Virus record (IMG/VR): IMGVR_UViG_3300011754_000016 | Location: 1-64,000 of that record | Origin: an uncultured virus (IMG/VR IMGVR_UViG_3300011754_000016) | Taxonomy: Duplodnaviria > Heunggongvirae > Uroviricota > Caudoviricetes | DNA: 64,000 nt | Direction: 5' to 3' (one strand) | Shown here: piece by piece, positions 2,122-23,179 of the stretch | Position numbering within the stretch: position 1 is the stretch's first letter | How the letters are laid out: every line of letters begins with the position of its first letter | Notes under the pieces: model-generated | What the model was told of the DNA's origin: nothing | Databases searched by the model: none | The model's input: only the letters and a program-made list of their open reading frames with translations | Position numbers and translations under genes: made by a program

Positions 2122-2264
2122 CTATTCCCCCTTAGCTGATAATGTGGCTCGTTGCAGTCGCTATAGTGCGGCTGCTTATGCTTTGGCGCTCGATTGTCAC
2201 GGTACTGCTTAAAGTGACGTTTGCGTTTGGCATACTTACGGCTTGGCTTTGAATAAGTTTTCAT
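2118..2264 (-). CDS. Small basic hypothetical protein (48 aa)
   Basis: MKTYSKPSRKYAKRKRHF...; start overlaps the upstream stop and the stop overlaps the next ATG (translational coupling); too short for the ORF track. Confidence 0.45.
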   Translation of the reverse strand: MKTYSKPSRKYAKRKRHFKQYRDNRAPKHKQPHYSDCNEPHYQLRGNR

Positions 2265-3362: not shown

Positions 3363-3591
3363 TATTGCCCCCGTTTACTTCGCTTGCATCTATCCAATAG
3401 CGCTTAAATCGTTTGCCATTGTGTTTGATAAATTCATCTTGAATGGCAATACCATTAGCGCGTAACTCGCTGATACGCTGGGGTAAGCAAGTCATTTTGT
3501 ATAAGCTAAAAGCTTGCATACTGGTAATAGACTTGCCCGCCATCAAGTGCGCCATGATGATTTGATGATAACTTTGCCGTGTAGTGGTCAT
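3355..3591 (-). CDS. Winged helix-turn-helix DNA-binding protein
   Basis: 78 aa; GKSITSMQAF...RISELRANG motif. Confidence 0.75.
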   Translation of the reverse strand: MTTTRQSYHQIIMAHLMAGKSITSMQAFSLYKMTCLPQRISELRANGIAIQDEFIKHNGKRFKRYWIDASEVNGGNND

Positions 3592-3593
3592 CG

Positions 3594-3872
3594 CTAAGCC
3601 TCGCTTGCCGTGTGGCTCTCAAGCCATGCTAAAACGTCAGCGTTACGCCATGCGCTCATGGTAGGGCTCAACTTCACTGGGGCAGGAAAGCGCCCATCTT
3701 TTGACCATTTCCAAAGCGTGGTGCTGCCAAAGGGCAGAAAGGGCAAAAGCTGGCTTGCGCGGCTCATGCCTTGCGGTGGCAAGTAAGGCATATCGCCATG
3801 ATTTTCGGCGGGGCTGTCAGCGCTTGGCTGATTGAAAGCGATTACTTCGCTATTGGTGGTAGGCTGTGCCAT
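3594..3872 (-). CDS. alpA: AlpA-family regulator / excisionase
   Basis: STTLWKWSKDGRFPAPVKLS..SAWRNADVLAWL signature. Confidence 0.9.
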   Translation of the reverse strand: MAQPTTNSEVIAFNQPSADSPAENHGDMPYLPPQGMSRASQLLPFLPFGSTTLWKWSKDGRFPAPVKLSPTMSAWRNADVLAWLESHTASEA

Positions 3873-3950
3873 CTGTATAACTCCATGCTATGCCGTAACG
3901 GTCTGCTACGGCTTACATGGGCTATGTTATGTAGTAGGATATTATGCAGC

Positions 3951-3987
3951 ACCCTAAATGGGGTAAAGTCATACCCTAAATGGGGTA
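3951..3987. repeat. Two 15-bp direct repeats ACCCTAAATGGGGTA upstream of alpA (likely operator)
   Basis: Exact copies at 3951-3965 and 3973-3987 (22-bp period). Confidence 0.7.
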
Positions 3988-4009
3988 TAGGTTTGTTTTG
4001 GGGTGGTTA

Positions 4010-4573
4010 TTAATTAGGTTTAGGGCGCTTCTTTTTGGCATCGGCTAGCATTAGATTTGCATCTCTAAAGCGATTTTCTAAAGTGGTTTTGCGCTGTCCT
4101 TGAATGTCCTTATCTAATATATCTCCTATTATGGTGGCTTGGCTTTGAAATGGTGCCTTACCGTCTATACCCTTTGGCGTGGTCATTAACTCCAATAGCA
4201 AGCCTATAGTGGTTTGATAACTCTTTTCGGTATGGTCATTAAGCTGGCTGGTAGCATTTTCCTGTGATGGCGCTGGCTTGTTGTTATTACAGTCTATCAA
4301 TACTGCTTCATCTAAGCTGTCGTTAAACCTCTCGAGCGTATAGCCTTTATCCGCTAAGTATCTTTTAACTTCATCTACTAAAATTAATCCCTCATCATTA
4401 AAAACTTTAAGCTTGCCTGCCTTTATACTCGTTTCAATCATTTTGATAATCTGTTTATATCCTCTATTACCAATATTGAGTGAAATTGGGTCTAAGTCGC
4501 AAACTAAACAAGCTATTTCATTTGGAGTAAATAAATCTAAATCTACTAAATAGCTTTGATGCTCTCCTAACAT
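4010..4573 (-). CDS. Satellite hypothetical protein, possible regulator of alpA
   Basis: Likely ATG at 4573 (MLGEHQ...), directly after a structured leader; helical C-terminus. Confidence 0.65.
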   Translation of the reverse strand: MLGEHQSYLVDLDLFTPNEIACLVCDLDPISLNIGNRGYKQIIKMIETSIKAGKLKVFNDEGLILVDEVKRYLADKGYTLERFNDSLDEAVLIDCNNNKPAPSQENATSQLNDHTEKSYQTTIGLLLELMTTPKGIDGKAPFQSQATIIGDILDKDIQGQRKTTLENRFRDANLMLADAKKKRPKPN

Positions 4574-4672
4574 AATCCACACCCCTACACCCTTTAATAA
4601 AAATAGGTGCAAGGCGCTGACAGCATTAGGGTGTGGTTTGCTGTCGTTCGGGTAATTACTCCTAGCCTTGCA
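4571..4672 (-). ncRNA. Structured pseudoknotted 5'-leader RNA, copy 1
   Basis: P1 TGCAAGGC/GCCTTGCA; GGCTAGG..CCCGAAC; P3 GACAGCA/TGCTGTC with a CCACACCC loop complementary to two GGGTGT tracts beside the ATG. Confidence 0.6.
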
Positions 4673-4678
4673 AAGTTG

Positions 4679-5026
4679 TTACGCCATGCCCTCACTTTTG
4701 ACAGCATTGGCAAGCGTGTCGGTTATCCACTGATTAAGGCTCATGCCGTGGCTGGTAGCAATCGTGCTGACTTGCTCATGCAACTCGCTTGGCATACGGG
4801 TTACAAATTTACCTGAAAAGGATTTGTAAGGGGTAATACCTTGCTCTTGGCAAACGTCCAAAAAGGCTTGTAGTGACTGCCTGCCCTCATGTTCTAAAGC
4901 GGTGATGCTGTCACCATAAAAATCAGCGCCACCGTTTAAGCCAACAAATTCACCACGGAATAGGTCTATTTCAGGGTCGTATTGAATGATGGCTTTATGG
5001 TCATTAATCATCATAATATTTTGCAT
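4679..5026 (-). CDS. hicB: HicB antitoxin
   Basis: YDPEIDLFRGEFVGLNGGADFYG plus C-terminal RHH FSGKFVTRMPSELH...SLNQW. Confidence 0.92.
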   Translation of the reverse strand: MQNIMMINDHKAIIQYDPEIDLFRGEFVGLNGGADFYGDSITALEHEGRQSLQAFLDVCQEQGITPYKSFSGKFVTRMPSELHEQVSTIATSHGMSLNQWITDTLANAVKSEGMA

Positions 5027-5028
5027 GA

Positions 5029-5328
5029 TTACTCCTTATTATCCGTTGTGGGGGCAGTAGCGCGGGCGTCATCAATAGGGCTATACCCTAAGCTATCTAA
5101 CCATTTGCGAACACTGGCAACCGCGCCCTTATCCGTTGTCGGCTGGGGGTGGGGTCGGTGATAAACTTGAACTTCACCATCTAACACTACCGCCACTCTT
5201 GAGCCTGCCCTTTCGCTAACTTCTGCCCCTAATGCGATAAATAGGGCTTCAATATCTGCCCATTTTATATTTGCTGATATAGGCTTAGTAAATATAATAT
5301 TGAGTGTTTTTAAGTGCTTACGCTGCAT
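5029..5328 (-). CDS. hicA: HicA toxin (mRNase)
   Basis: IKWADIEALF..GSRVAV..HRPHP motif; lies upstream of hicB. Confidence 0.92.
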   Translation of the reverse strand: MQRKHLKTLNIIFTKPISANIKWADIEALFIALGAEVSERAGSRVAVVLDGEVQVYHRPHPQPTTDKGAVASVRKWLDSLGYSPIDDARATAPTTDNKE

Positions 5329-5351
5329 ATCTTATCCTTAGCTTATGTTTT

Positions 5352-5380
5352 ATTATAGTACCACTTATTGATACTAACAA
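5352..5380 (-). promoter_or_regulatory. hicAB sigma70 promoter with an internal inverted-repeat operator
   Basis: TTGTTA-N17-TATAAT on the minus strand; TAGTA-N11-TACTA overlaps the spacer. Confidence 0.6.
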
Positions 5381-5443
5381 TAGCTATTTAGTATCGCAAT
5401 TGGATTGACAGCATTTGCTATCAAAACTGGTGGTTTAAGCAAT

Positions 5444-5555
5444 TTAGGCAAATAAAGGCAACTTAGGCACGCTTAGGCATTGGGTCTTAATGACTTAATC
5501 CTTTGCCATATAAGGGCTAGACGCTATTTAGGCAGTTTAGGCACGTTTTTAGGTA
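5444..5555. repeat. TTAGGCA iteron-like repeat cluster (possible satellite ori)
   Basis: Exact copies at 5444, 5463, 5473, 5528, 5537; variants at 5454 and 5549; about 10-bp phasing beside AT-rich DNA. Confidence 0.65.
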
Positions 5556-5654
5556 AGTATAAATAAGCCTTATATTTATATTGATGCCGTAAACATAGCC
5601 CCTACCTGTATTTAAAAAGCTATAAAAATTAAATATAGGTCTGCCATTGGCGGC

Positions 5655-6893
5655 TTAGCCTTGCTTTTGTGCCTTTGGTTTAAAGTCTGCATGAATGACG
5701 TTATCCAGCTTGCCCGCATGGGCGCTATCAATAAAGTCTGCCCATTGGTTCATCATGTCAATGCGATAAGGCAAGTGCTGTGCCCCATTGTAAGCGGCGC
5801 TAATCTTATTCTCTCTATCGTGGGCTAATTGCAGCTCAATAGCTTCATGCTTAAAGCCTTGTTCATGCAGCGTGGTGCTGGCAAGCCCTCTAAAGCCGTG
5901 CCCTGTCATGCGCCCCTTATAGCCCATGCGCCATAGGGCAGTAATAAAAGCGTTTTGGCTGTATGGCTTGCGGGTCGATGGATTAAAGAAAACATACTTA
6001 TCCGAAAAGCCAAAGGCGCGTATCTGCTCAAGAATGGCAATCACTTGCGGCGCTAGCGGTACGATATGCACCCGCCCCGCTTTCATCTTATCGGCGGGTA
6101 TTGTCCAAAGGCGGCGCTTGTAGTCAATCTCGCACCATTCCATGAAGCGTAGCTCACTGGTTCGCACAAACGTGTAGCACATCACCCAAAAGCCCAGCCT
6201 TACCAAAATATCACCCTCATAGGCGTTAATGCTTTGTAGCAGCTTTGGCAGTTCTTGCACGTTGATGCGCTTATGGTTCACGGTCTTATGAGGCTTGATA
6301 GCGGCGGCAAGGTCAATGGCTGGGTTATTTATTGCCAAGCCGTTTCTAACGGCGTGTTTGAATATCTGCCCTATCTCTCTAATGGTACGCTTTGCCATTT
6401 CATTAGCGCCGCGCTGCTCTACTGCTTTGCCAATGGCAAGCACATCAGGGGCGGTTATATCGTCTATATTAAGATGACCAATAGCGGGCTTTACATCGCG
6501 CAAATAGGCGGAATAGTTGCGGCTAAAGGTACTTTCAGCAAGGTAGGTCTTGCGCTCGCTATACCACTGTTGAGCAATGGCATCAAAAGACTTTGTGCCA
6601 TCACTATCAGCCTTGCGCCGCTTCTTATCCTGCTTTGGGTCAATGCCTTGCGCTAGTAAATCTTTTATTTGTTGGTTGCGCTGGCGGGCATCAGCAAGCC
6701 CCATTGCGGGGTATTTGCCAATGGTCAGGCTTTGGCGCTTACCATTAAAGCTATAATCACTTACCCATGCCTTACTGCCACTATGACGCACCCAAAGGCG
6801 CAAGTTATCGCCATCGCTATATTTATCAGGATTATTAGGGGTGCAAGCGCTTGATGGCTTTAGGCGTTTGATTTGGCTATCAGTTAAGGGCAT
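5655..6893 (-). CDS. int: P4-like tyrosine integrase
   Basis: 412 aa; arm-binding N-terminus (DGDNLRLWV..LTIGKYP); catalytic R (VRTSELR), HGFR, QLAH, AYN. Confidence 0.95.
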   Translation of the reverse strand: MPLTDSQIKRLKPSSACTPNNPDKYSDGDNLRLWVRHSGSKAWVSDYSFNGKRQSLTIGKYPAMGLADARQRNQQIKDLLAQGIDPKQDKKRRKADSDGTKSFDAIAQQWYSERKTYLAESTFSRNYSAYLRDVKPAIGHLNIDDITAPDVLAIGKAVEQRGANEMAKRTIREIGQIFKHAVRNGLAINNPAIDLAAAIKPHKTVNHKRINVQELPKLLQSINAYEGDILVRLGFWVMCYTFVRTSELRFMEWCEIDYKRRLWTIPADKMKAGRVHIVPLAPQVIAILEQIRAFGFSDKYVFFNPSTRKPYSQNAFITALWRMGYKGRMTGHGFRGLASTTLHEQGFKHEAIELQLAHDRENKISAAYNGAQHLPYRIDMMNQWADFIDSAHAGKLDNVIHADFKPKAQKQG

Positions 6894-7406: not shown

Positions 7407-9857
7407 CTACAGAACAACCTCATGGTTAGCGCCGAAAATAGAATCCATCATTGCTTGGTCCTTACTTGCATTTTCAAATATTCGCTCTTGCTTGATTGTT
7501 TCAAACAGCCGATCAAAGGCTGCATTAATCAGCTTTCGTTCCTCGCCTTCCGGATAGGCTTTGTGGTTGCTATAAAGCGCATTGTCCGCGCCAAAGCTTA
7601 AATAGTCGTTACGGCGCTCTTTATTTTTTAGACTATCTTCTAAAAACGCTTGAAAGGACCGTGCCGCCATTTCATGCAGACTGGACCAATAAGGTTTTGA
7701 CTTGCCAGCGTCCAGCTCCTTTGAGTTGGCATAAAATTGCGACACACGCTCACCGGTATTGAGGTAAATTGTTTGGTCAATAAACGCCACGCTATGATAA
7801 GCGGCGGCTATTTTTCGCCATGTGTTATGGTTTTTAGTGCGCCGGCTGGCAGGTCGATTGCCTTGTAATCGATCATCAACCGCTAAGACTGCCGATTGCG
7901 CGTCTTTCGCATCAAAAATAATCTGACTCATCGTGTTGCGAGTACCATCTTTGATATTAAGGATGGCAAGGTCCACATCCTTTTGAGTAATGGCAAATTT
8001 TTCAGGAGATCGCGTGACACCAAGCGTCATGACATCCTGCAACTCTTTGAACCGCGTTCCGACAATATTGTCACCGACCAAATCAGGCGTTTGGCTCAAG
8101 AAGTTCCCTGCGCCTGTTGCGCCGTCAACACCCATCACCTCACCTAAAATATTATCAATAGCATGGAACCATTCATGCCCCAGTGAGCCGCCACCTTTCA
8201 TTTTGGTGATGTTAATAACGCGTCGATCCGACTCATAGTGTGCAAGCGCACCTGAGCGACCACGCGCGCCAAAAGCTAACGCCAATCTGCCACCAAACGC
8301 CAATGATTGCGGATCAATCCCTACCACATCGGACAGATCAAGCATACTTGCTGCCGCGTTTTCTACATGAAATTTTGCGCTATCTTTATCGTTTAATACC
8401 CAACTGCCTGATTGAATGTCACGAAAGCCAAAGGTGTTTTTAAGCTCGCTGGTTGAGTTGATTGTGACCGGCTCGCCGCCGATTCGGGTGATATTATCAG
8501 CAACAATTAGCTCAAACGTTTTTTTCTTTTTGCCTTTGGATGCCGGCTTGCCTGCATCATCTTTTGGGATCACAAGCCCCCAATCATTGTACTTACCGCG
8601 CAATCCTGCGTTGGCGTGCTTCACAAAAGCGGCTGAGGTCAGCTCGATAATCGCCCAAAAGCGCTCACCTAAAGACACCCACGCAAGGCTTGTCATATCA
8701 TTTTTAAGTGCGTCAATGCTATTGGTTACGCGCATTTTATCTAGCATTTTGAATTGAGCGAGATATGGCTCGTAATCTTTACGGCTGACAATGGCGCTGT
8801 CGGTTCGTGTGATTTGATAATTCTGATGGTCCGCTGATTTATCCTGATCGTCAAGCCAATCTATCATCGCGCGAGTTTTGAAATAACCACTACCCACCCA
8901 ACCGGTATAAACTTCAAAATCACCTTTATTGTAATACACCAAATCAGCGTCTTTGTCGCTTATATTCATAGACTTGATGGCTTGCCGGCGCGCGCGGTCA
9001 TAATCTGCTTCCAGTTTTTTGGACTTGGCAAGCAGATCACTCGCCATATCATCTTTTATTTTTAACTGCCGTAAATACTCATCACTCTCGCCTGCGCTAA
9101 GTTGAAAACCGCCCATTTCACTGGCAATCAGCTTTAATTCAGCGACCAACGACTTAATGTCTTTAATGTTGGTAATTCGCGCCTTAAGAGAATTGATGCC
9201 GGTCACGTAGGCTTTTCGCGCCATTTTTTGCTGATCTGCAATGCTGTTTTGTTCAAGCTGATCAAACACGGCTGCTAAGTCGCTAGGTCGCAAACCTTTA
9301 ATTATTTTGCGACCGGTATTGCTGTTTTTGACAAAATAGGACAAATCCCAATGCGGTGATGGGGCAATAGACGCCAGGACTTTTTGGATCATGAAAGCAG
9401 TTGCGGCATCACCGTCGCTATCCTTCATTGCTTGGTAGTCGATTTTACCCATGATGTTTGATTTTTTAATCACATCTTCAGCCAGTAGCGGATCAGCTTC
9501 GATCTCGTCCCATTCAATATCAGTGGATTTTACCGTTTGACCTTCTTGCGCCAACTCTTTGATCCGGTTTCGCGCCTGCTCCTTGTGGCTGCCTGAAATG
9601 TAACCTGTATCGGCGTAACGGTAGTTTTCGTCATTTACATTGTCGCTAAAGCTGTCCTCTGAGTCATCATCAATCAGGTCATCGTCAGGTGGGCTGGCGG
9701 GTTTAGTGTTGCCCAAATAACCAAGTTTGGTCAAAATATCGGTCAAATATTTGGCAGCGTTGGCGCGGGCAAGAAATCCGCTTGCAGATTTTAGGTCGGT
9801 TAAGGCGTTTTGTAGCAGCTTGATGTTTTCAAGGCGCTGCATTGTGTTTGATGGCAT
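7407..9857 (-). CDS. LPD1-domain polyvalent protein with a zincin metallopeptidase motif
   Basis: 816 aa; LAFGARG, GGGSLGHEWFHAIDN (HExxH), YWSSLHEMAARSF, AYPEGEER. Confidence 0.8.
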   Translation of the reverse strand: MPSNTMQRLENIKLLQNALTDLKSASGFLARANAAKYLTDILTKLGYLGNTKPASPPDDDLIDDDSEDSFSDNVNDENYRYADTGYISGSHKEQARNRIKELAQEGQTVKSTDIEWDEIEADPLLAEDVIKKSNIMGKIDYQAMKDSDGDAATAFMIQKVLASIAPSPHWDLSYFVKNSNTGRKIIKGLRPSDLAAVFDQLEQNSIADQQKMARKAYVTGINSLKARITNIKDIKSLVAELKLIASEMGGFQLSAGESDEYLRQLKIKDDMASDLLAKSKKLEADYDRARRQAIKSMNISDKDADLVYYNKGDFEVYTGWVGSGYFKTRAMIDWLDDQDKSADHQNYQITRTDSAIVSRKDYEPYLAQFKMLDKMRVTNSIDALKNDMTSLAWVSLGERFWAIIELTSAAFVKHANAGLRGKYNDWGLVIPKDDAGKPASKGKKKKTFELIVADNITRIGGEPVTINSTSELKNTFGFRDIQSGSWVLNDKDSAKFHVENAAASMLDLSDVVGIDPQSLAFGGRLALAFGARGRSGALAHYESDRRVINITKMKGGGSLGHEWFHAIDNILGEVMGVDGATGAGNFLSQTPDLVGDNIVGTRFKELQDVMTLGVTRSPEKFAITQKDVDLAILNIKDGTRNTMSQIIFDAKDAQSAVLAVDDRLQGNRPASRRTKNHNTWRKIAAAYHSVAFIDQTIYLNTGERVSQFYANSKELDAGKSKPYWSSLHEMAARSFQAFLEDSLKNKERRNDYLSFGADNALYSNHKAYPEGEERKLINAAFDRLFETIKQERIFENASKDQAMMDSIFGANHEVVL

Positions 9858-13386: not shown

Positions 13387-14274
13387 TTACCGTCTCATTT
13401 TTAAAATATCGTTAGAGTCCCACGCCATAAGTGACAGTAGGGTGATTTGTACTCTGACTAAGATGCGATTGCCTTGCTTGTTCATGGGCGCTGTGATGGG
13501 CGCCGATACGTTCTCAATAACCATTGGGTTATAGGTTTTGCCGCCATATCTCAATTGCACCAACGGCGGGATTAAAGAGGGGAACAACCCCTTTGATATG
13601 CCGCTTTCAAGCGTCGATACAAAAAGCGACTGGTCGGACAATTCAATAGGGGAAGCCCAGCTTTGCAAAAGCTCGATGGCATCCTCAACCTCTGCTTTAG
13701 CATCCGCCCACGCATGAAAAACCAAACTTCCGGAAATGCGAACTGAGTTGCTTGAAGTATAAATTTGGCGGCTGTTGAGTTTAGTAAAGTTGGAGCGACC
13801 CATGAGACCGCGTAGGGCAGTATCTGCTTCGCCAAACGCTGAGCTTGCTGCGTCACTGATTCCGGTTACCTCACCTACGGCGGAGGCAACATCGCCCACG
13901 CTTTCAGCTAACGCGCCCGCCATACCTGTTGGATCACCTGCCATTGCAAACACGTTATAAAGCGCTGCGCTTGCCTGCCCTGATTGGATCATCCCCATGA
14001 GGTTTGGCAATCGACTTTCAGGGTTTGAGGCTTCAAAGGGGGTGCTATATTGCGATTCAATAGTAAAGTCAGCATCCTCAAACAGCCCCTCAACAAATGG
14101 TTGAGTGGTATCCACGTTGTAAGTTTGCTTACCCTGCCCGCCCTCAATATTGCCTTCAGTAACTCGGCGTATTCGAGCAATCAAATGGGGGTTTAACCCC
14201 TTTTGTTGCCAAACCGTTCCTACTGACGGGCTTTGGGTAGTGGGTTTGCTTGCATTTTTGGGCGTCTTTTTCAT
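13387..14274 (-). CDS. Putative tail tube initiator / baseplate protein
   Basis: 295 aa; beta-rich tube-like C-terminus (PPLVQLRYGG..PMVIENVSAPI). Confidence 0.55.
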   Translation of the reverse strand: MKKTPKNASKPTTQSPSVGTVWQQKGLNPHLIARIRRVTEGNIEGGQGKQTYNVDTTQPFVEGLFEDADFTIESQYSTPFEASNPESRLPNLMGMIQSGQASAALYNVFAMAGDPTGMAGALAESVGDVASAVGEVTGISDAASSAFGEADTALRGLMGRSNFTKLNSRQIYTSSNSVRISGSLVFHAWADAKAEVEDAIELLQSWASPIELSDQSLFVSTLESGISKGLFPSLIPPLVQLRYGGKTYNPMVIENVSAPITAPMNKQGNRILVRVQITLLSLMAWDSNDILKMRR

Positions 14275-17200
14275 GATGTGCTTGCCATATCTTGCAGCGC
14301 TTTGATGCTAATTTCAGCAAGTCTTTTCTGATACGCTTCACTAATGGCATTTACTTTGATCATGAGCGCTTCATCACTTGCCACTTCATCAGCGATTTGG
14401 ATTAGCTCCTCAAGCAGTTCATTGTTTGGCTCAAAGTCGTCTGAATTAACCAGTTTTTCAATGTCATCTAAGCGGTTTTCAATGGTCATGTCAGGCTCGT
14501 TTTGTTGGGGCGCGTTTTCCTCTACGCCTTGCGGTTCGGGCGTGGGGGTAGTTTGTGCTTCGGGTTCGTTTTCAAGTTGGCTGAATAAATCATTGTCGGC
14601 AATAACTTGGTTGGCGTGACTAATAACATCGGCAAGTTTTAGCGGCTCAGGCTCGCCAAACATATCAAGCGTTTGGCGCTTGTTGGCATCACTGTCAATA
14701 AATCCTGCCATTGCTTTAAAATACTCTGCCATTTTTTTAGCGCTTCGGGCGTTTTGAGCAAGGAATACTGCAAGTTCGGCGGTGGCGTCATCAATATCAC
14801 CAAATAAGCCTTGCTGCTTAACATACTCGGCAACGTCTTGGTTGTTGCGCTTGGCGCTTAATAGCACGTTGCTTGCTTCCACAATCGCGCTTTTGACTTC
14901 ATCATCAATAGATTTTTCAATGCCGTTAACAAGACCATCTGCCACATCTTGAGCTTGAGCGCGGTTGCTGGCTTGCGCCTCGACAAACTTGCCAGCAGCA
15001 AGGCTTAGCGCGTTAATCATGTTTTGCAATTCAGGGTTGGTTTGATCCGCCATCATTTCAAGCAAGCGATCATCATCGTAAGCTTTGCTAAATACCGCCG
15101 CTTTCATTCGTGTGGCTAAAGCTTGCGTTGGCTGACCGTTACTGTCGGTATATTGCGCCGCTTCCGTTTCACCAAGGCTTGCTAAAAACGCTTTAACAAA
15201 CTGCTGATTACTTGCAGCAAGCAGGTCGCCGTTTTCGCTTGGTGTGAACAACTCAAGCATTCCACCAGTCAAGCGTTTGGCGTCACTTTTGGCGCGCTCT
15301 GACGCGGTAAAGCTCAGCTTGTCGTCTTGGTTGGCTTCAACAGTAAAGGCGGCGCGGTCAATGTTGGTGATGCGGATTCGTACCAAAATAGGGTGCTTGT
15401 ATTTTTCGACCTGCTCAGCACTAAAGCCAAACATATCAGCGTTATCAGCAAGCCAATTACGATACTCGCCAGCATCACCATTGGCGTACGCCATCTTGAT
15501 AGCAATGGTGCGACCGTTGCCGCTTTCCACGATTAAGTCATCACCAACGATAGGCGCGCCGGTATCAACGCGACTACTGCGACCCAAGCTTTCAGGATCA
15601 AGCTCTTTTGAGGTTTTTTGCACCCATGCAATTGAGGCGTCACGGCTTCGGTCACGCGGCTGTAATTCTTGCGGGTAATCAGGGTTTTCAGCGCCGCTTG
15701 CAGAATGCGAGGCGACCAACTTTTCGGCTTCAACCAAAGCAAATTTACTACTGATTTTTGTGCCTTTAGGGGTTTTGGCTTGGCTTGTTTTGCCGGTGGT
15801 AATACTGTTGCTTGGGGTTGCTGCTTGCTCGGTAGGCGCGGCTGATTCATCTTGAGCGCTTGCCAGCGTGTTTTCATCTTGAGTGGCGTTATCCTCAATA
15901 ACAGGCTCGGGTTTACGACCATCTTCAGGAATAGAGAAGTTGTAACTCTTGTCCTTATTAAATAAGTCGATTAATTCTTCTAAGTAATTGACGTTGTACT
16001 TATCAGCCATAGCTACGATGAACTTTGAGGTTCGTGCGGCATTCATTTGAGTATAAGGGTACTTAGTGCTTGGTGCTCTAACGTCCACAAGCTCGCTATC
16101 TTCAAGATAAAAGCGACCCATTTTGTCAAACATACCTTTGGGGTGTAGCTTTCTGTCTTTTAGCAAGGTATAAACAGTTTTAATATCAGCCTTGCTTAAA
16201 GTATGACCTCTTGACTTGATTGCGGCTACCAGTTGCTTTAGCCCATCATAGGCGTTTTTAGCATCTTCGTTTTCGGACAAATCTTTGGCGTAATCATCAT
16301 CCAAAAACTCAAGGAATCGTTCGAGATAGACGCTGTTCTTGGGGTTGAATTTAGTGTCTTTTTCGGAAAGCGATAATTCAAAAGCAAGGGTATCTATATA
16401 ACCCTCAGTATCATCGATTGTTTTATTGGTGATTTCTTGCGGTGAGATTGGTGTATCTTGAGTGCTTGCCGGCGCATTTTCTTCTACCGCTACGGTTTCC
16501 ACAGTTTTTTCGATTTTCGGCGCTTTCATTGCTGCGTCGATCTTTTTATTTAAGTCGTCAATGGTGCTATCTAAGTCGCTGATGGTTTTAGTTTTATCGC
16601 TAATGCGCTGCTCAGCATCGCTAATGTCTTGATCCATTTGCAGCTTGCGGGCTTGCGCGGATTTAAAGCGCTTACTGTTTTTAGCAGCCACACGCATGAT
16701 GCGATTCGCCAATACTGGCAATTGAACATTATCCCCATTTTTCGGTGACAGTACGGCGGTCACATCACGCTTGTTCAACATCCATTTCCAAGAAATCATA
16801 ATGTCGCTTGGTGCAAGCTTTAGCGGGGTGCTGTCAGGATTATGGAACCAAATAGAAACGCTTTGACCGTCGGATAAGTCAAAAACAAAGGCGATATTCG
16901 ACACGCCTTGACGCTTAAACGGCTTGGTTTGAGTGACGTTAACCACCGATAAACTGTCATTGCTGGCACGGCTCATGGCGGCAAAAAGGCGGTCTTTTAG
17001 TAGCGGCAACCGGTTTTTGGTTTCCATCAAAGCATCAAAGCTTTCTTCTTCAGCGCCCAAATCTTGCAATTCTGCGGTCAAATCAAGCGCGTTGATTAAC
17101 TCATGGCGGCTATCAGCGCGAACCATATCAAGATATAACGTGCTATCGCTGCCGCCGTGGCTGGCAAGCGCTAAGCTTTCGATAGAGTCCCATTGGACTT

Positions 17201-17717
17201 CATCAAAAGTGACGCGCCGGCGCTCCGCCTCAAGCTCGCTTGCGGTGATGATAGGTAAGTAGTTTTTATTCTGTGATGGGTTATCTAATAGCTTGCTGAT
17301 CGCGTCAATTGACCAGCCGTTATCGCAATCTGCGCTATCAAACTGGCTTGCTTCGGAACTGACCAGTACAAAGCTATAGCTGTCATCACTTGTTAAGCTA
17401 TCAAACTGACTGCGCGCCACTTGCAGGGCATGAGCAGCATCAAGCGCTCCGCCAATAGCAAAGCTGTCGATATAGGCACCGTTTTCATCAAAGCTGTTAA
17501 GCAGATACCAATTGTCATCATCACTGCCAACGCTTGCGTCAAACCCTAAGCCATCAAAGCCGGTCGTGTCTGCAATGACGGCGTTAAGGTTTCGGTAATT
17601 GCCGGTGATGACGCCGGACTCATAACGACTGTAACGCGGTTTGATTTCGCCATCTGCTTGCAAAATATTGCGCTTGGTATGAGCTTTATAAGTGGTTTGG
17701 TACGCCATGATTGCCAT
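14271..17717 (-). CDS. DarA-like / DdrB-ParB-like fusion, internal virion protein
   Basis: 1148 aa; acidic FD-rich N-terminus, PFKRQGV..LSDGQSVSIWFHNPD (P1 DarA-like), coiled coil, NPDYPQELQPRDR..GAPIV..VESGNGR (DdrB-like ParB domain). Confidence 0.75.
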   Translation of the reverse strand: MAIMAYQTTYKAHTKRNILQADGEIKPRYSRYESGVITGNYRNLNAVIADTTGFDGLGFDASVGSDDDNWYLLNSFDENGAYIDSFAIGGALDAAHALQVARSQFDSLTSDDSYSFVLVSSEASQFDSADCDNGWSIDAISKLLDNPSQNKNYLPIITASELEAERRRVTFDEVQWDSIESLALASHGGSDSTLYLDMVRADSRHELINALDLTAELQDLGAEEESFDALMETKNRLPLLKDRLFAAMSRASNDSLSVVNVTQTKPFKRQGVSNIAFVFDLSDGQSVSIWFHNPDSTPLKLAPSDIMISWKWMLNKRDVTAVLSPKNGDNVQLPVLANRIMRVAAKNSKRFKSAQARKLQMDQDISDAEQRISDKTKTISDLDSTIDDLNKKIDAAMKAPKIEKTVETVAVEENAPASTQDTPISPQEITNKTIDDTEGYIDTLAFELSLSEKDTKFNPKNSVYLERFLEFLDDDYAKDLSENEDAKNAYDGLKQLVAAIKSRGHTLSKADIKTVYTLLKDRKLHPKGMFDKMGRFYLEDSELVDVRAPSTKYPYTQMNAARTSKFIVAMADKYNVNYLEELIDLFNKDKSYNFSIPEDGRKPEPVIEDNATQDENTLASAQDESAAPTEQAATPSNSITTGKTSQAKTPKGTKISSKFALVEAEKLVASHSASGAENPDYPQELQPRDRSRDASIAWVQKTSKELDPESLGRSSRVDTGAPIVGDDLIVESGNGRTIAIKMAYANGDAGEYRNWLADNADMFGFSAEQVEKYKHPILVRIRITNIDRAAFTVEANQDDKLSFTASERAKSDAKRLTGGMLELFTPSENGDLLAASNQQFVKAFLASLGETEAAQYTDSNGQPTQALATRMKAAVFSKAYDDDRLLEMMADQTNPELQNMINALSLAAGKFVEAQASNRAQAQDVADGLVNGIEKSIDDEVKSAIVEASNVLLSAKRNNQDVAEYVKQQGLFGDIDDATAELAVFLAQNARSAKKMAEYFKAMAGFIDSDANKRQTLDMFGEPEPLKLADVISHANQVIADNDLFSQLENEPEAQTTPTPEPQGVEENAPQQNEPDMTIENRLDDIEKLVNSDDFEPNNELLEELIQIADEVASDEALMIKVNAISEAYQKRLAEISIKALQDMASTS

Positions 17718-17746
17718 GCCTTAATAAAAAATTGGTAGATGGTGTT

Positions 17747-17788
17747 ATTCTGCCAAAGATTTTAAGGTCGGCGTAGGCGCTGTTCCAA
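17747..17788 (-). promoter_or_regulatory. Late promoter motif (darA-like gene)
   Basis: TTGGAACAGC, then CAGAAT 29 nt after GGAAC. Confidence 0.75.
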
Positions 17789-17801
17789 AAGCGCTGGCAA
17801 G

Positions 17802-17827
17802 AAAAAAACCCCGCGAGGTGCGGGGTT
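17802..17827 (-). terminator. Rho-independent terminator
   Basis: AACCCCGC/GCGGGGTT stem plus a T run on the minus strand. Confidence 0.75.
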
Positions 17828-17844
17828 CGGTTGGTTTAAAAAGG

Positions 17845-18165
17845 TTAGCAAATCGTGCAGTCTATATCATCCTCACCCATGACAGCACTTAGCGTTACAT
17901 CGCCATCGCAGTCGTAATCTTTAAAATACTTTTTGCCGTCTGTGTCGATAATCGTGTAGCTATAGCCTTCCTTGTCCAGCTTATGCGCCATCTTAGCTGC
18001 CGCCCGCTCACTCATGTGAGTGGTGTAACCTTTTCCGCCGTAGTAGTCAGCAAGAACCACTGCGTAGATACATCCAGCGGCGAATTTAATTTCGCGCTCG
18101 CAATCCTTGCTATGGATTGAGTGAATAGACGCCATTGGCTTTTGATCCAAAATTAAAGTAGTCAT
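17845..18165 (-). CDS. Hypothetical protein, candidate anti-CRISPR/anti-defence
   Basis: 106 aa with an acidic C-terminus; GGAG RBS; own promoter carrying the shared operator. Confidence 0.65.
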   Translation of the reverse strand: MTTLILDQKPMASIHSIHSKDCEREIKFAAGCIYAVVLADYYGGKGYTTHMSERAAAKMAHKLDKEGYSYTIIDTDGKKYFKDYDCDGDVTLSAVMGEDDIDCTIC

Positions 18166-18222
18166 GATTTTTTACTCCGTATTAAGTCTTGCTATTTAAG
18201 TTATCTTGCTTGATATGGGTAC

Positions 18223-18251
18223 AATATAAGGGTAATTTTACCCCATGTCAA
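18223..18251 (-). promoter_or_regulatory. Sigma70 promoter with operator GGGTAATTTTACCC
   Basis: TTGACA-N17-TATATT; palindrome at 18230-18243 in the spacer. Confidence 0.8.
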
Positions 18252-18351
18252 CACCTATTTTAATTTACTTTTAAATATCTATTTTTAATAAATCCTTTTT
18301 ATATATGCCAAAAAAATTATAAAAAGGATTTAAATTATTTTATAATCGCGC

Positions 18352-18380
18352 TTGACTTAGGGTAATTTTACTCTTAATAT
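18352..18380 (+). promoter_or_regulatory. Sigma70 promoter with operator GGGTAATTTTACTC
   Basis: TTGACT-N17-TAATAT; near-identical palindrome at 18360-18373. Confidence 0.8.
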
Positions 18381-18488
18381 ATGAATCGTCAACTGGACGA
18401 CAGATGATACGGCAACAGATTATTTAACAGACGAAACAAACAGCAATCAAGCTGGCATGACTTGCCAGCAAACAAAAGGATTACGATC

Positions 18489-18986
18489 ATGACAAACTTA
18501 ACTTTATCAAACGGTCAATCAATTACTACTACTGATTTTGATCACAACTATCACAGCAGTCAAAAACACTCATCAAACTTTGTTTCTGAGTACGTGCTTC
18601 ATAATCTTGATGTTTATAACGAGGTTATGGGTATGTCAGCAGTTTACCAAGCAGGTCAATCTTACATTCACGGCGACTACTCAACGCCAAGCGCTAAACT
18701 TGAGCTTAGTGAGGACGGTGGCGCAGACGGACGACTTATTAAAATCAACAATCTATATGAGGCTGATTTTGATGATGAAACTTGCAGCGAATATTTGCAA
18801 GAAATGGTTGGTGACTTAGAAATCGAGGGCATTAACACTGTTAGCGACTTGAGAAACCTATACTTAGAACTTATGGATAATAACTCTCTCGCTCAGCAAT
18901 ACGCCGACAACCTTGACATTGAGCCGGTTTTTCTGAGCGACGAGCCAGATTTTACCGACGCTCCTGACCACTCTGATATTTATTAA
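18489..18986 (+). CDS. Highly acidic hypothetical protein, candidate anti-CRISPR
   Basis: 165 aa from ATG 18489 after an AAGGA RBS; D/E-rich; first gene of the aca2-acrVA2 operon. Confidence 0.75.
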   Translation: MTNLTLSNGQSITTTDFDHNYHSSQKHSSNFVSEYVLHNLDVYNEVMGMSAVYQAGQSYIHGDYSTPSAKLELSEDGGADGRLIKINNLYEADFDDETCSEYLQEMVGDLEIEGINTVSDLRNLYLELMDNNSLAQQYADNLDIEPVFLSDEPDFTDAPDHSDIY

Positions 18987-18995
18987 ACCAACCCT

Positions 18996-19021
18996 AAGCG
19001 CTCTAATCGGGGCGCTTTTTT
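18996..19021 (+). terminator. Internal terminator/attenuator before aca2
   Basis: AAGCGCTCT/GGGGCGCTT stem plus a T run. Confidence 0.6.
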
Positions 19022-19040
19022 GCTTTAAGGAAAAAAAATC

Positions 19041-19511
19041 ATGAACGATACAACATTAAAGCTTATTGCCATGCGCCGAGCGCTTGGCTTAAACGCTTCT
19101 GAGCTTGCTGAACTACCCGCTGTGCAACTTAACAAGCGCACCATTGCAACGTATGAGCGTTTTGAGCGTCTGCCTGCGCAATCCTACATTGAGTCAATGC
19201 ACGGCTTGAGCGTGTTTTATCAGCTGCTACTCTCAAATCTTAATGCAGACATTACGCTGCACAAATTGCAAGCTGGCAAGCCTGAACTGCCCTACTTTAA
19301 AGAGTTTGCCGACTTTGAGCGCGTAACGGGTAACGACTGCCAAACTTATTGGCGACTCTGGCAAGCAGTCATTGGTCATCTTGTGATGACCGGCGCTATT
19401 GATAGCATTAACGATGACGCGCCACTCCCTGCCAGCTTCAAGCAGTCCAAATTTTGGCTTGATAAGGGCTATGATGTGACCGATTTAGATAAGATGGAGG
19501 ACGCGCAATGA
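19041..19511 (+). CDS. aca2: Aca2/YdiL (DUF1870)-family anti-CRISPR-associated HTH repressor
   Basis: N-terminal HTH (AMRRALGLNASELA..RTIATYE) and LPYFKEFADFERVTG..YWRLWQAV, matching the Aca2 pattern. Confidence 0.8.
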   Translation: MNDTTLKLIAMRRALGLNASELAELPAVQLNKRTIATYERFERLPAQSYIESMHGLSVFYQLLLSNLNADITLHKLQAGKPELPYFKEFADFERVTGNDCQTYWRLWQAVIGHLVMTGAIDSINDDAPLPASFKQSKFWLDKGYDVTDLDKMEDAQ

Positions 19512-20548
19512 CGCCATTTGAGCAGATGCAAGCGTTTAACCGCGAGTTTGATGACGCCAAGCCGATTTACCGGCAGATGCAGGAGTGGCAAATCAAAAAT
19601 GCGCCGGACAATGGTGTATTTTACCCCTCAAGCCATATTTACAGCGCATCACCACGGCTAATGTCAGCCGTGATTGCTGGCAAGATCGGTAATACCACAG
19701 TTGACAGTATGAGCGCCGAGCAATTAACGCTGCTCAGGTATTTTTGGGGATTGCACTTGTTTGGCGCGTGGCGCAACACGCTTGGTGTTTACCGCATTGA
19801 CCCCGATATTTTTAGCCAAATCATCAAATCACCCATCCCGGATGATACACCGTCGATTGTTTTTGAGCGCTTGCCTGAGTGGTGTGTTTATATCGAGATG
19901 CCGCCAAAGGCGCTGACAGTGATTGCAGGCAGTGGCAGGCAAGCGGTTTGTAGTGGGTTTTGGGCGCTGTTTGATCTGCAGAACGTCAATGGCAAAATGC
20001 AGCCGGCGCTTAATTTAGTGCTTGATGTCGATGATGATGTTAAGACGACTCACGACGCTTATCAGCCGCTTATCCTGCCCATTGATAAAAATATGACCAT
20101 TCGTGAGGCGGTTTTAGCGATCTTTGATAGCGATTTGCACCGCGTCAACGATGCCCTACTGAGTCGCGCCAATGCCGAAACCGAAATGAAGATCATGTTT
20201 CACTTGCTATCATTGCTACTTTGGCTTTGCGCTGAAGAACCGGATATTAGCAATATCAAGGGCGAGCCAATTAGCGGCGATCAGCTTAGACTACCAAAAT
20301 ACCGGGTCAATAAAAAAACAGGCGTCTTTATTCCGCCAAGCCAGCCGATCATCTACAATATCGGTAAGCGACTTGGCGGTGAGGTCAGGCAGTTTAATGA
20401 AAAATGCGGCGCTGGTGACAGCCGCATATCAGCACGAAAGCGACCACATATCAGGCGCGGTCACTGGCATGGCGTTTGGTCGGGAATCGGTCAAGATAAA
20501 CAGTTTCGGGTTTATTGGCAGCCAGCGATTTTTGTTAATGCAAATTAA
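19508..20548 (+). CDS. acrVA2: AcrVA2-family anti-CRISPR protein
   Basis: GAWRNTLG, PDDTP..LPEWCVY, GFWA, LLWLC.EPDI, NKKTG.F, KRPHIRRGHWHG.W, WQPA.FVN, collinear with Moraxella AcrVA2 as recalled. Confidence 0.9.
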   Translation: MTPFEQMQAFNREFDDAKPIYRQMQEWQIKNAPDNGVFYPSSHIYSASPRLMSAVIAGKIGNTTVDSMSAEQLTLLRYFWGLHLFGAWRNTLGVYRIDPDIFSQIIKSPIPDDTPSIVFERLPEWCVYIEMPPKALTVIAGSGRQAVCSGFWALFDLQNVNGKMQPALNLVLDVDDDVKTTHDAYQPLILPIDKNMTIREAVLAIFDSDLHRVNDALLSRANAETEMKIMFHLLSLLLWLCAEEPDISNIKGEPISGDQLRLPKYRVNKKTGVFIPPSQPIIYNIGKRLGGEVRQFNEKCGAGDSRISARKRPHIRRGHWHGVWSGIGQDKQFRVYWQPAIFVNAN

Positions 20549-20570
20549 TTTAATTCTTTTAAAATATCAC

Positions 20571-20599
20571 TTGTAATCTAAGTCGGCTTAGATTACAAT
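20571..20599 (+). promoter_or_regulatory. Sigma70 promoter covered by a perfect 12-bp inverted repeat
   Basis: TTGTAA-N17-TACAAT; TTGTAATCTAAG-TCGG-CTTAGATTACAA. Confidence 0.8.
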
Positions 20600-20668
20600 A
20601 CAAACATCAAGACAAGATACGTGCAGGTATTTCTTGATAATTAAACACACCAAACCGGAGTAAACATT

Positions 20669-20890
20669 ATGAACACTACTAAAATCACCAAGCCTTTCGC
20701 CAAATCTTTTAATACCTTGCTCGGCGGCGAAACTGTCAGCTACAGCCCTCGCTACAACAAAGTAGCTATTGGTAATGATGCTGTTGAAGTCTCAGAAGAA
20801 ACGATGGACGAAATTCTTGATACAAGCGACGCTTACGGCGATAAATTCCGCTTGGTAGTCAGCGCTTTTGAACAAGCAGCATCAAACTAA
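20669..20890 (+). CDS. Small hypothetical protein, candidate anti-defence
   Basis: 73 aa, GGAG RBS, acidic C-terminal half. Confidence 0.7.
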   Translation: MNTTKITKPFAKSFNTLLGGETVSYSPRYNKVAIGNDAVEVSEETMDEILDTSDAYGDKFRLVVSAFEQAASN

Positions 20891-20905
20891 ATCGCCAAGA
20901 AAAGA

Positions 20906-20936
20906 AAAAGCCCTTGATGTGCAGTCAAGGGCTTTT
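20906..20936 (+). terminator. Rho-independent terminator
   Basis: AAAAGCCCTTGA/TCAAGGGCTTTT. Confidence 0.7.
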
Positions 20937-21022
20937 AGCCATCTAAGCGATGGTAAACACACCAACTCGGTAAACCGAATCAGTAAAGCGATTATGCAAT
21001 ATTTGGTCGCTAAAGACAAGGA

Positions 21023-21685
21023 GTGAAAATGGCAAAATTCAAAATGTGCGAACGATGCCAGCAGGAAAAAGAGATCGAGCTATTCCGCCTAAAAAATAGA
21101 AAGCTTGGAAAAATTTGCCTAGATTGCCGCAAAAAATGTGTAGTTTGCAACAATCCAATCGCCAATCAGACCAGTTTAGGAACCAAGTATTGCAGCGATA
21201 ATTGCCGCCGAACTTTTGACTATCAACAAAGAGCGCGGAAGCGAGCGGAGGCTATTTTTGAAGACCCTGATTACTACAAAAAGCAGTATGAAAAGGCAAA
21301 GGCGCGAGGCTGGAAAACGTACAATCCTGATAATAAGCGTGAGTATTATTACAGTGTCGCAAAGCAAAGACGGCAATCATCGCCTGAGTTGATGCAAAAG
21401 CAATGCGAAGCTGCAAAGGCGTATTACCGTCGAAATCGTGAAGAAATCCTTACAAAGAAACAAAATGTGACGCCCGAACAAAGAGAGATTTATAACCGTG
21501 GCGTGAGAAATTGGCGAAGAACCCGGCTTGAGAATATGACTGCTGAGCAGATTGCCGCTGACAAACGCCATGCAAATGCAATTAATAGGCAATCAAGAGC
21601 ACGATCAAGACTTGAGAAAATGCGGCTAGACTTCGCAAAAATTGAAAATTTAACCATACAAAATAAGGAACAGAATGATGAATGA
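21023..21685 (+). CDS. Basic zinc-finger protein
   Basis: Three CxxC and one CxxxC motif, then R/K-rich helices. Confidence 0.7.
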   Translation: MKMAKFKMCERCQQEKEIELFRLKNRKLGKICLDCRKKCVVCNNPIANQTSLGTKYCSDNCRRTFDYQQRARKRAEAIFEDPDYYKKQYEKAKARGWKTYNPDNKREYYYSVAKQRRQSSPELMQKQCEAAKAYYRRNREEILTKKQNVTPEQREIYNRGVRNWRRTRLENMTAEQIAADKRHANAINRQSRARSRLEKMRLDFAKIENLTIQNKEQNDE

Positions 21686-22307
21686 ATTAATCAACAAAGA
21701 CGATTTGCAACAATTAGATGATAACCAATTATTAAAAGAGTTTAAAAACTCCTTAAGCCTGACTGTTTTTCATTTGCAAAAAATGGCAGTTATTTGGGAT
21801 ATTTTGACCAATCGGGGTATAGATTTATCAGAATACAAAAAAGGTTTGATTGAGTTTGTACCGCTGATTGCTCAAAACAAGCTTATCCCTGAGTTTGTGA
21901 CCGACTTTGCAGGTCAGAGAAATCTCATTAACCATGTATCAAGAATCCCGGTTGAAGAACAGCGGCGACTATTAAAGGTTGGGAAAGTTGAAAAACTGAC
22001 CATTTTGGAAGATGGTGCTGAGGTCGTACAGAATTTAGACCTCAACGAAATTAAAAGCGGCGAACTTTATCAGATTTTTGGCTCAGATAAATTGCGAACA
22101 ATAGAGGATCAGCGATTACTGCTTATAAAGCAAATGCCAAAATCAAAACCTAAAAAGCAACCAAAGCTAAAAACTTATCGCAAAGTTAGTATTGATAATA
22201 ACCAAGAATATTTGGTGCTGGGTAGCGAGGCTAAAGTTAAATTATCGGAGGTTTTAGAATTGATTAAAGCAACTTACAACGTTGATATCCCCAAAGAGGT
22301 AAAATGA
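21675..22307 (+). CDS. Hypothetical protein
   Basis: 210 aa, translationally coupled to both neighbours. Confidence 0.7.
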   Translation: MMNELINKDDLQQLDDNQLLKEFKNSLSLTVFHLQKMAVIWDILTNRGIDLSEYKKGLIEFVPLIAQNKLIPEFVTDFAGQRNLINHVSRIPVEEQRRLLKVGKVEKLTILEDGAEVVQNLDLNEIKSGELYQIFGSDKLRTIEDQRLLLIKQMPKSKPKKQPKLKTYRKVSIDNNQEYLVLGSEAKVKLSEVLELIKATYNVDIPKEVK

Positions 22308-22495
22308 TGACAAGCAGAAAATCAGACAGTGAATACACGTCAAAATATAACAATAAGAGGCAAGCCGAACGCTTTGAAATCAAATTTTATCTTGATGACG
22401 ATAAGGAGCGGCGGATTTATGAGCAGCTATCAAAAGAGCCGAATCGCAAGCAGCTAATCTTGGAGTTGCTTAAAAATCATTATAGTGATGAATGA
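22304..22495 (+). CDS. Small ribbon-helix-helix-like protein, candidate Aca-type autorepressor
   Basis: 63 aa; helix, RFEIKFY strand, two helices; last gene of the operon. Confidence 0.55.
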   Translation: MMTSRKSDSEYTSKYNNKRQAERFEIKFYLDDDKERRIYEQLSKEPNRKQLILELLKNHYSDE

Positions 22496-22497
22496 CC

Positions 22498-22523
22498 AAA
22501 ACCCCGCCTAACCGCGGGGTTTT
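22498..22523. terminator. Bidirectional terminator
   Basis: AAAACCCCGC/GCGGGGTTTT between convergent genes. Confidence 0.8.
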
Positions 22524-23179
22524 TACTTTAAAAATATCGTTGGCATCAGCTTTTGAAAAGTAATGGTGCTTTTAATGATTTCACTTCGACCGGCTGATGA
22601 TACCTCCGTGCGCCCCTCTTTGACACCGACAATCCAAGCACGACCAACAGGGGCGATGTTGGTATGTTTCTTAGGATTAATAATAGCGATAGACAATTTA
22701 AACGCATATTTTCTAGGCTCGTTTACTGTCCCGTCTTCATTAAAAGCCCGCTTTCGACACGCTCGAAAAGATTTAAAAATATCACCGTTAATCGTTTCAA
22801 TAAACGTCATATCCATATCATCTGCGGTGCGTTTGGTTAACAGGCTAAATTCATACGATCCGGCATGACTATTCTCAGCTTCTGCGCCGCCAAACGACAC
22901 GTCCGACTCGGTCACCAAATAGCCGATGTTTTTGTTTTTAAACCACGGAATATCGCCACCAATCCCAAAGACATCCTCAATTTTTACTTGGTACATACAC
23001 TGACTGAGCACATCCATTGCGCGCATCGTGCCATACAGTTTTTTAAGCGTTTTTAGATCAATAGCCGCGGGTCCTGCGCCCGTGCTTGCACCGCCCTTGC
23101 TGCCGATCTTAATGCTGCCTTTCTTGCCGCTGGCTCGGATATTTAGTGCAAAATCGGGAAGCAATAATTCGTCTCTCAA
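22523..23179 (-). CDS. Tail tube-like / baseplate protein
   Basis: 218 aa; MDMTFIET..G and a final ITFQK strand typical of tube folds. Confidence 0.5.
   Translation of the reverse strand: MRDELLLPDFALNIRASGKKGSIKIGSKGGASTGAGPAAIDLKTLKKLYGTMRAMDVLSQCMYQVKIEDVFGIGGDIPWFKNKNIGYLVTESDVSFGGAEAENSHAGSYEFSLLTKRTADDMDMTFIETINGDIFKSFRACRKRAFNEDGTVNEPRKYAFKLSIAIINPKKHTNIAPVGRAWIVGVKEGRTEVSSAGRSEIIKSTITFQKLMPTIFLK

Follow-up and report, generated by a model that had tools for sequence, protein, structure and literature searches.

A strongly acidic protein of an undescribed family encoded in first position of a putative acr-aca2-type operon of a provirus

What does a small, extremely acidic protein do when its gene lies directly in front of a gene for an Aca2-like regulator? 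The question is raised by gene 1 (18489..18986, + strand), found in a stretch of 64,000 nucleotides (hereafter the window) that is part of a provirus record of 76,678 bases. An earlier note on this DNA had ranked the gene as the top candidate for a new anti-CRISPR (Acr) protein. The anti-defence setting of the operon is indeed well supported, but nothing ties the gene product, here called P0001, to CRISPR.

The acidic gene and its surroundings

The reading frame of gene 1 extends from the ATG at 18489 to the TAA at 18984-18986 and encodes 165 amino acids. Since 133 representative homologs were found, the frame is regarded as coding. The ATG at 18489 is favoured as the start over a TTG at 18462, because the homologs begin at the equivalent position. 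A ribosome-binding site, AAGGA, is located at 18476-18480, 8 nt 5' of the ATG. The protein contains 32 acidic residues (19 Asp and 13 Glu) and only five basic ones (3 Lys and 2 Arg), resulting in a net charge of -27 and a pI of 4.05. This pI is the lowest among the 77 ORFs of at least 100 aa in the 64-kb window that start with Met. Thus, the open reading frame, the ribosome-binding site and the richness in Asp and Glu with very few Lys and Arg, all of which had been pointed out before, were recovered here.

The window holds 78 non-overlapping ORFs, nearly all of them on the - strand. An inverted island of seven + strand genes extends over 18462-22495 and is positioned between a protein of 1148 aa with DarA_N and ddrB-ParB domains and the structural genes on the - strand. 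The GC content is 0.38 at 18-19 kb as compared to 0.44-0.49 in the flanks. Gene 1 is followed by gene 2 and gene 3, described below, and the rest of the island (20669..22495, + strand) comprises genes for 73, 220, 210 and 63 aa, of which the 220-aa product is zinc-ribbon-like and basic. The 63-aa gene (22304-22495, + strand), the last one in the island, encodes a protein that is 56% identical (E 5e-21) to the product of a 66-aa gene located two genes upstream of the AcrVA2 homolog in an Acinetobacter prophage. It is also weakly similar (E 0.006) to the product of another 66-aa gene, which in Moraxella phage Mcat5 immediately follows the AcrVA2 homolog. In the compared loci the two 66-aa genes are found at 3353-3553 in L006 and 4348-4548 in L015. 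Possibly, the 63-aa protein is a small regulator that accompanies AcrVA2 islands.

Further genes of the window are mentioned for orientation. Two polyvalent-type proteins are encoded on the - strand, the above-mentioned protein with DarA_N and ddrB-ParB (14271-17717, 1148 aa) and a protein of 816 aa with an LPD1 domain (7407-9857). Proteins of this kind have been proposed to be packaged anti-restriction proteins. The region 1-6893 (- strand) encodes a DUF3987 primase/helicase-like protein (706 aa), a winged-HTH protein, a HicA/HicB pair and a tyrosine integrase; it is either one end of the provirus or a separate, adjoining integrative element. A protein of 654 aa at 48582-50546 (- strand) contains a Hint (intein-type) domain. 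At 62085-62753 (- strand) a C-5 cytosine methyltransferase of 222 aa is encoded, which has the look of an orphan methylase.

Promoter-like sites, putative operator and partner genes

A promoter-like site is located ahead of the gene 1 operon at 18352..18380 (+ strand, module 2). It has the form TTGACT-17-TAATAT and contains the near-palindrome GGGTAATTTTACTC (18360-18373) in the spacer. Its consensus score is 9 of 12. In the region 17700-20800 ten promoter-like sites were detected, as compared to 5.8 +/- 2.8 in shuffled sequences; hence, the consensus match alone is weak evidence for a promoter of gene 1. A twin of this site, module 1, is found at 18224..18251 on the - strand, where the -35 element TTGACA is followed by the palindrome GGGTAATTTTACCC (18230-18243) in the spacer and then by the -10 element. 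With TTGACA-17-TATATT it scores 11 of 12 and is the stronger of the two. The complete 28-nt module, i.e. a -35 element, the palindrome GGGTAA-N2-TTACCC within the spacer and a -10 element, occurs in two copies in the 64 kb (18224-18251 on the - strand and 18352-18379 on the + strand), with 0.01 expected by chance. The palindrome by itself yields two matches, as compared to 0.06 expected, and has no other copy in the 64 kb. It is this duplication of the whole promoter-plus-palindrome module that renders the gene 1 promoter credible. A promoter had been predicted as strong in the earlier note; the site is present and belongs to a duplicated module, but "strong" overstates its score.

As in an acr-aca2 operon, an inverted repeat overlaps the operon promoter; here it is situated inside the -35/-10 spacer. 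We infer that the Aca2-like protein binds the GGGTAA-N2-TTACCC palindrome, which would then be the putative operator. Module 1 precedes a divergent gene of 106 aa (17845..18165, - strand, pI 5.01), for which no match was found in the family libraries. Probably, this gene under the stronger twin promoter is a co-regulated second cargo candidate.

The 5' leader of gene 1 is approximately 100 nt long and carries a hairpin of 7 bp at 18451..18469 (+ strand), directly ahead of the ribosome-binding site. The MFE and centroid structures both contain this hairpin, and the z-score of the leader is -2.49. A second, weak hairpin is present at the 5' end of the leader. The hairpin at 18451-18469 may be a regulatory or stabilising element. 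A comparison of 17700-22600 with Rfam gave nothing near the thresholds.

Between gene 1 and the aca2-like gene a terminator-like hairpin with a T-run is located at 18996..19027 (+ strand). The hairpin proper (18996-19017) comprises nine pairs, of which five are G-C, with TTTTTTGC following it. Seven terminator-like sites were detected in the scan, as compared to 3.0 +/- 1.7 in shuffled sequences, and the fold z-score of the hairpin is only -1.98. An internal terminator at this position had been claimed before, and a terminator-like hairpin does separate the two genes, with the modest z-score just given. The promoter-like scan listed no + strand site between the hairpin and 19041, so genes 2 and 3 probably depend on read-through. 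In this case the hairpin would probably act as an attenuator.

Gene 2 (19041..19511, + strand) encodes a divergent Aca2/YdiL-like HTH regulator of 156 aa. Its match to the Pfam family Aca2_YdiL (PF08965) spans positions 1-110 of the 118 in the profile but scores 18.4 bits, where the gathering cutoff is 23.8. Only three relatives of gene 2 were found, and these show full-length PF08965 matches that are also sub-threshold (19.8-23.4 bits). In the PDB, the Aca2 entry 7ezy is matched over its length with an E of 9.7e-4. A model of the protein has low confidence (pLDDT 52.8), and the top seven Foldseek matches of this model are all Aca2/YdiL structures with TMt values of 0.65-0.73. A search for related loci with the Aca2-like protein found none. 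We accept gene 2 as a divergent Aca2, and gene 1 is, as had been noted, the first gene of an aca2 operon.

Gene 3 (19508..20548, + strand), which was absent from the earlier note, encodes a full-length AcrVA2 homolog of 346 aa. Its start overlaps the stop of aca2 (ATGA), i.e. it is translationally coupled to aca2. Residues 5-345 match PDB entry 7ci1 with an E of 3.8e-71, the match to phrog_6160 has an E of 1.5e-53, and at the DNA level the gene matches one annotated as AcrVA2 in Shewanella phage Y11. At its C-terminus the homolog shares the stretch RPHIRRGHWHG with AcrVA2, without any exchange. According to the accessible part of 10.1101/2022.11.29.518452, H286, R288 and H291 are needed for AcrVA2 activity; judged from the sequence, these residues appear to be contained in RPHIRRGHWHG of gene 3, with a presumed numbering offset of one residue. 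The same part of that source describes that most AcrVA2 orthologs are from hosts that lack Cas12a, and that FinQ, which inhibits conjugation by blocking F transfer, is an ortholog as well. Therefore, the theme of the operon may be conflict between mobile elements, not anti-defence. Furthermore, since the operon already holds an AcrVA2 homolog, the presence of Aca is not a specific pointer to gene 1. The AcrVA2 homolog alone could account for the Aca2 control.

The closest described arrangement is the acrIF8-aca2 operon of Pectobacterium phage ZF40 (PDB entries 7b5j and 7vjo-7vjq; 7ezy is from Oceanimonas). Both have a regulator of the Aca2/YdiL fold, an inverted repeat over the promoter and a cargo gene upstream of aca; a long leader with a hairpin ahead of the ribosome-binding site is likewise shared, as far as the accessible text of PMC6765145 describes it. 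In contrast to ZF40, the regulator here is divergent and below the Pfam cutoff, and the cargo is unrelated to AcrIF8. The putative operator is GGGTAA-N2-TTACCC instead of the core TTCG-N6/N8-CGAA given for ZF40 in that part of PMC6765145. Moreover, aca2 is located in the middle of the operon, behind the terminator-like hairpin and coupled to the downstream acrVA2-like gene, and a second copy of the operator-promoter would drive a divergent gene. Conserved paired RNA hairpins in the 5' UTR that are bound by Aca2 are a mark of ZF40-type operons; the leader of gene 1 has the stable hairpin at 18451-18469 and the weak one close to its 5' end.

AcrVA2 loci (7ci1; Moraxella phages Mcat4/5; Shewanella phage Y11) resemble the present one in the full-length homolog with its conserved C-terminal stretch and in the location of the genes within small islands of unknown genes. 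They differ in that neither an acidic-family member nor an Aca2-like gene was found at the seven other AcrVA2-homolog loci read (L006-L010, L014, L015). AcrVA2 and gene 1 themselves are unrelated. In Shewanella phage vB_SbaS_Y11 an ArdA-family gene (250-867 of locus L014; PF07275, 1.1e-13) and an HTH_3 gene are located divergently beside the AcrVA2 island, so AcrVA2 homologs there also occur in mixed anti-restriction/anti-CRISPR islands.

Protein family and predicted structure

P0001 has 17 relatives in a collection clustered at 90%, and in a library clustered at 50% the family comprises 133 representatives at E <= 1e-3. In the sources searched all members carry only the name "hypothetical protein". 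P0001 belongs to no family in Pfam, PHROGs, NCBIfam or PADLOC, and a sequence search of the PDB with P0001 alone gave nothing. When the family profile was compared with the PDB, the best match was NheA (E 0.024); it was rejected as a helical low-complexity match. A tblastn search with P0001 against phage records had no match, and the central member P0053 matched one plasmid and no phage. The profile search for related loci found none in viral and genome contigs and four in metagenomes, and a search with a degenerate DNA pattern found one viral locus. Among isolate genomes the family was present in 1 of 401 in a family-level sample and in 0 of 400 in a class-level sample, in which one further genome was unscored; it is rare in isolate genomes. 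A literature search found neither the motifs of the family nor the term "AcrIF31".

The family is confined to mobile elements and uniformly acidic. The pI is below 5 in 142 of 146 proteins of up to 400 aa (median 4.24), a set that includes a few non-family entries. In an alignment of 100 members no column is invariant. Each of F17, Y35, N44, Y53, Q54, D63, P67, L73 and N131 is retained in 80-99 of the 100 members, and H38 in 77. H22 and D41 also belong to the conserved polar or aromatic positions, and residues 53-80 form a highly conserved loop region. In the same alignment no position with Lys or Arg is conserved, which favours binding of a protein over binding of a nucleotide or nucleic acid.

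The ends of the family members vary. The closest relatives of P0001 have a zinc-ribbon-like extension at the N-terminus. Many members end in the acidic motif DDY-x-[DE]E-x-TG-x-L-x-LK, which is missing in the clade of P0001, where the C-terminus consists of LDIEPVF and an acidic tail. An SSB-tail-like acidic C-terminus with a terminal aromatic residue was also considered, but the idea was given up, since Phe, Tyr or Trp is the last residue in only 10 of 100 members. A comparison of 100 family members with Pfam and PHROGs gave only single sub-threshold matches in fusions. The longer member P0043 contains an AcrF31-like N-terminal segment (26.3 bits, gathering cutoff 27), and P0059, likewise a longer member, has a DinI-like C-terminus (21.9 bits, cutoff 24.2). 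P0032 has a C-terminal extension similar to that of P0059.

With an alignment of 100 sequences AlphaFold2 predicted the structure of P0001 with a pLDDT of 93.7 and a pTM of 0.84. The predicted architecture is a three-stranded sheet with a helical bundle. Strands are formed by residues 18-27, 35-46 and 49-54, followed by an ordered loop region (55-80) and helices comprising residues 81-87, 91-95, 97-110 and 118-140. Approximately residues 10-146 make up the globular core of the protein; for the acidic tail (150-165) the confidence is lower (pLDDT 67).

Fold searches with this model gave no convincing match. The best hit of Foldseek in the PDB had an E of 0.54 with TM values of at most 0.18, and in BFVD the best E was 0.039 at a TM of 0.12. 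In the ESM Atlas, whose own model of P0001 has a pLDDT of 0.36, TM values were at most 0.34 and no feature match was usable. VIA-align against 48,161 chains had a best Z of 4.0 and no hit at Z >= 5. Models that are unmatched typically reach a best Z of 7-8 in VIA-align; since P0001 stays below this range, the model has no recognisable counterpart. For a predicted model, the missing match should not be taken as proof of a new fold. Among the Acr families with a structure, AcrF10 was the best match, at a Z of 2.8, which is noise. P0001 matched no described Acr in Pfam, PHROGs, NCBIfam, PDB sequences or the fold searches, as far as Acr families are represented there by a profile or a structure.

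The gene neighbourhoods of relatives were compared at seven other family loci (L002-L005, L012, L013, L016), several of which are on short contigs. At L002, whose member is 60% identical, the gene follows a Q-antiterminator-like gene and its 3' end is overlapped by an HTH gene of 71 aa. In L012 it is located after the set of AlpA, zinc-finger and DUF927-primase genes of a P4-like island. The gene in L013, a Shewanella plasmid, is downstream of an orphan C5 cytosine methyltransferase and ParAB. At L016 and L003-L005 it lies within runs of small phage genes; a small neighbour gene in L016 is methylase-like when read by eye. In the DNA fetched, Aca2-like and AcrVA2-like genes were found at none of these seven loci.

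Possible functions and significance

For P0001 we propose an anti-defence function as the most likely role, as an early, abundant and protein-binding inhibitor from mobile elements; in our judgement the chances for and against this proposal are about balanced. Gene 1, closest to the promoter, would be expressed more strongly than the other cargo of an anti-defence operon that represses itself in the acr-aca2 manner. The operon would consist, in this order, of a promoter with operator, the acidic gene, a leaky terminator, the aca2-like gene and the acrVA2-like gene. It would be regulated by the Aca2-like protein and attenuated at the terminator. P0001 would be synthesised early and in excess, and the compact alpha/beta protein would most likely act stoichiometrically. 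It would bind and block a nucleic-acid-binding protein of the host, such as a component of restriction, CRISPR or another DNA-targeting defence. The negative surface and the conserved patch of F17, Y35, H38, N44, Y53, Q54, D63, P67 and N131 might mediate this binding.

Ocr (gp0.3 of T7) and ArdA (PF07275) share the size of about 165 aa and an extreme negative charge with P0001. An early or leading-region position on mobile elements is a further likeness. P0001 has the strong negative charge of an Ocr/ArdA-type mimic (-27, pI 4.05). None of 100 family members matched ArdA at E <= 0.01, a comparison by hhalign with an ArdA-family protein of Shewanella phage Y11 gave a probability of 0.2%, and neither Ocr nor ArdA was listed in the fold searches with P0001. 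It is the charge, and only the charge, by which DNA mimicry is suggested for P0001. The missing fold match leaves room for a mimic with another fold.

One specific form of inhibitor would be an anti-CRISPR in the strict sense, directed against a Cas effector or a surveillance complex of the host and perhaps mimicking DNA in the way of some small acidic Acrs; we consider this possible but rather unlikely. The first position in an Aca2-type operon with putative operators, the adjoining AcrVA2 homolog and the strong acidity of P0001 are consistent with it. So are the sub-threshold AcrF31-like segment of one relative and the small HTH gene that directly follows the homolog in L002 in an acr-aca-like manner. 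However, no similarity to any Acr was detected in sequence or fold, where the Z of 2.8 for AcrF10 is noise, and nothing links P0001 to CRISPR. The plasmid with the orphan methylase and the satellite in which the gene follows a primase fit anti-restriction or early functions at least as well. In addition, the accessible part of PMC13551039 (2026) indicates that Aca-regulated cargo is not restricted to Acrs: many genes without an assigned function are located downstream of Aca operators and were proposed as anti-defence candidates. Thus, of the earlier designation as top candidate for a new Acr, the anti-defence setting is well supported but the assignment to CRISPR is not.

Instead of a defence component, a housekeeping protein or another mobile element may be the target, which is a serious rival to the proposed anti-defence function. 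P0001 would then be a factor for host takeover or for competition between elements, either as an acidic decoy for a housekeeping DNA-binding protein (nucleoid protein, RecA, RNA polymerase or a repair enzyme) or, like FinQ, directed against rival elements. We regard both this role and these targets as tentative, at a low probability. The DinI-like fusion in P0059 and the similar C-terminal extension in P0032 point in this direction, but the DinI match remains below its cutoff (21.9 versus 24.2 bits). Members of the family are located in the early or leading regions that also house takeover genes, and the inhibition of F transfer by FinQ as well as the typical lack of Cas12a in hosts of AcrVA2 orthologs, as described in the accessible part of 10.1101/2022.11.29.518452, agree with such a role. 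The neighbours of gene 1, i.e. Aca2, AcrVA2 and the DarA-like protein, are in contrast of the anti-defence type. It is very improbable that P0001 partners its operon neighbours, be it as an adaptor, an antidote or a modulator of either the Aca2-like repressor or the AcrVA2-like protein, because no co-occurrence was seen: in the DNA fetched, neither of the two genes was found at the seven other family loci, and no family member at the seven other AcrVA2 loci. There is also hardly any likelihood that P0001 is an enzyme or a sponge for a small molecule, for example an immune signalling nucleotide. The conserved residues H22, H38, D41, N44, Y53, Q54, D63 and N131 could line a pocket of His, Asp, Asn, Gln and Tyr, and a compact fold with the highly conserved loop region 53-80 would be suitable for this purpose. 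A conserved basic residue for phosphates is missing, however, and none of the positions is invariant in the 100 aligned members. In the PDB searches there was no fold match to known sponges or phosphodiesterases, an absence that is not proof.

A more far-reaching version of the proposed anti-defence function is that an acidic decoy family with a new fold, distributed over phages, satellites and plasmids, blocks a DNA-targeting defence of the host such as restriction or CRISPR and forms a conserved two-pronged cassette with Aca2 and the AcrVA2-like protein. In this cassette the abundant decoy would neutralise the defence protein that already exists, and the AcrVA2-like protein would stop new synthesis of a chosen target. 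We think that this version is distinctly unlikely.

The general kind of locus is already known, since operons that are regulated by Aca2 and contain unannotated cargo are in print, as are Aca2 sites ahead of adjacent operons, both seen in the accessible part of PMC13551039; within that part of the text AcrVA2 does not occur. To the extent of our searches, the family of the cargo, the structure predicted for it and the putative operator are new, although the supplement of PMC13551039 may list the cluster.

No route to new anti-defence proteins has been more productive than Aca-controlled operons. The cargo family described here was in no profile library searched, comprises 133 representative clusters, has a confidently predicted structure for which no known counterpart was found, and is small and easy to express. 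If P0001 inhibits restriction or CRISPR, it would represent a structurally novel class of inhibitors, perhaps a new kind of nucleic-acid mimic, and would offer a handle on the roles of AcrVA2-like proteins in hosts without Cas12a. Otherwise, the locus still documents a variant of Aca2 with a new putative operator, an aca gene in the middle of an operon behind a probable attenuator, and one putative operator common to two divergent promoters.
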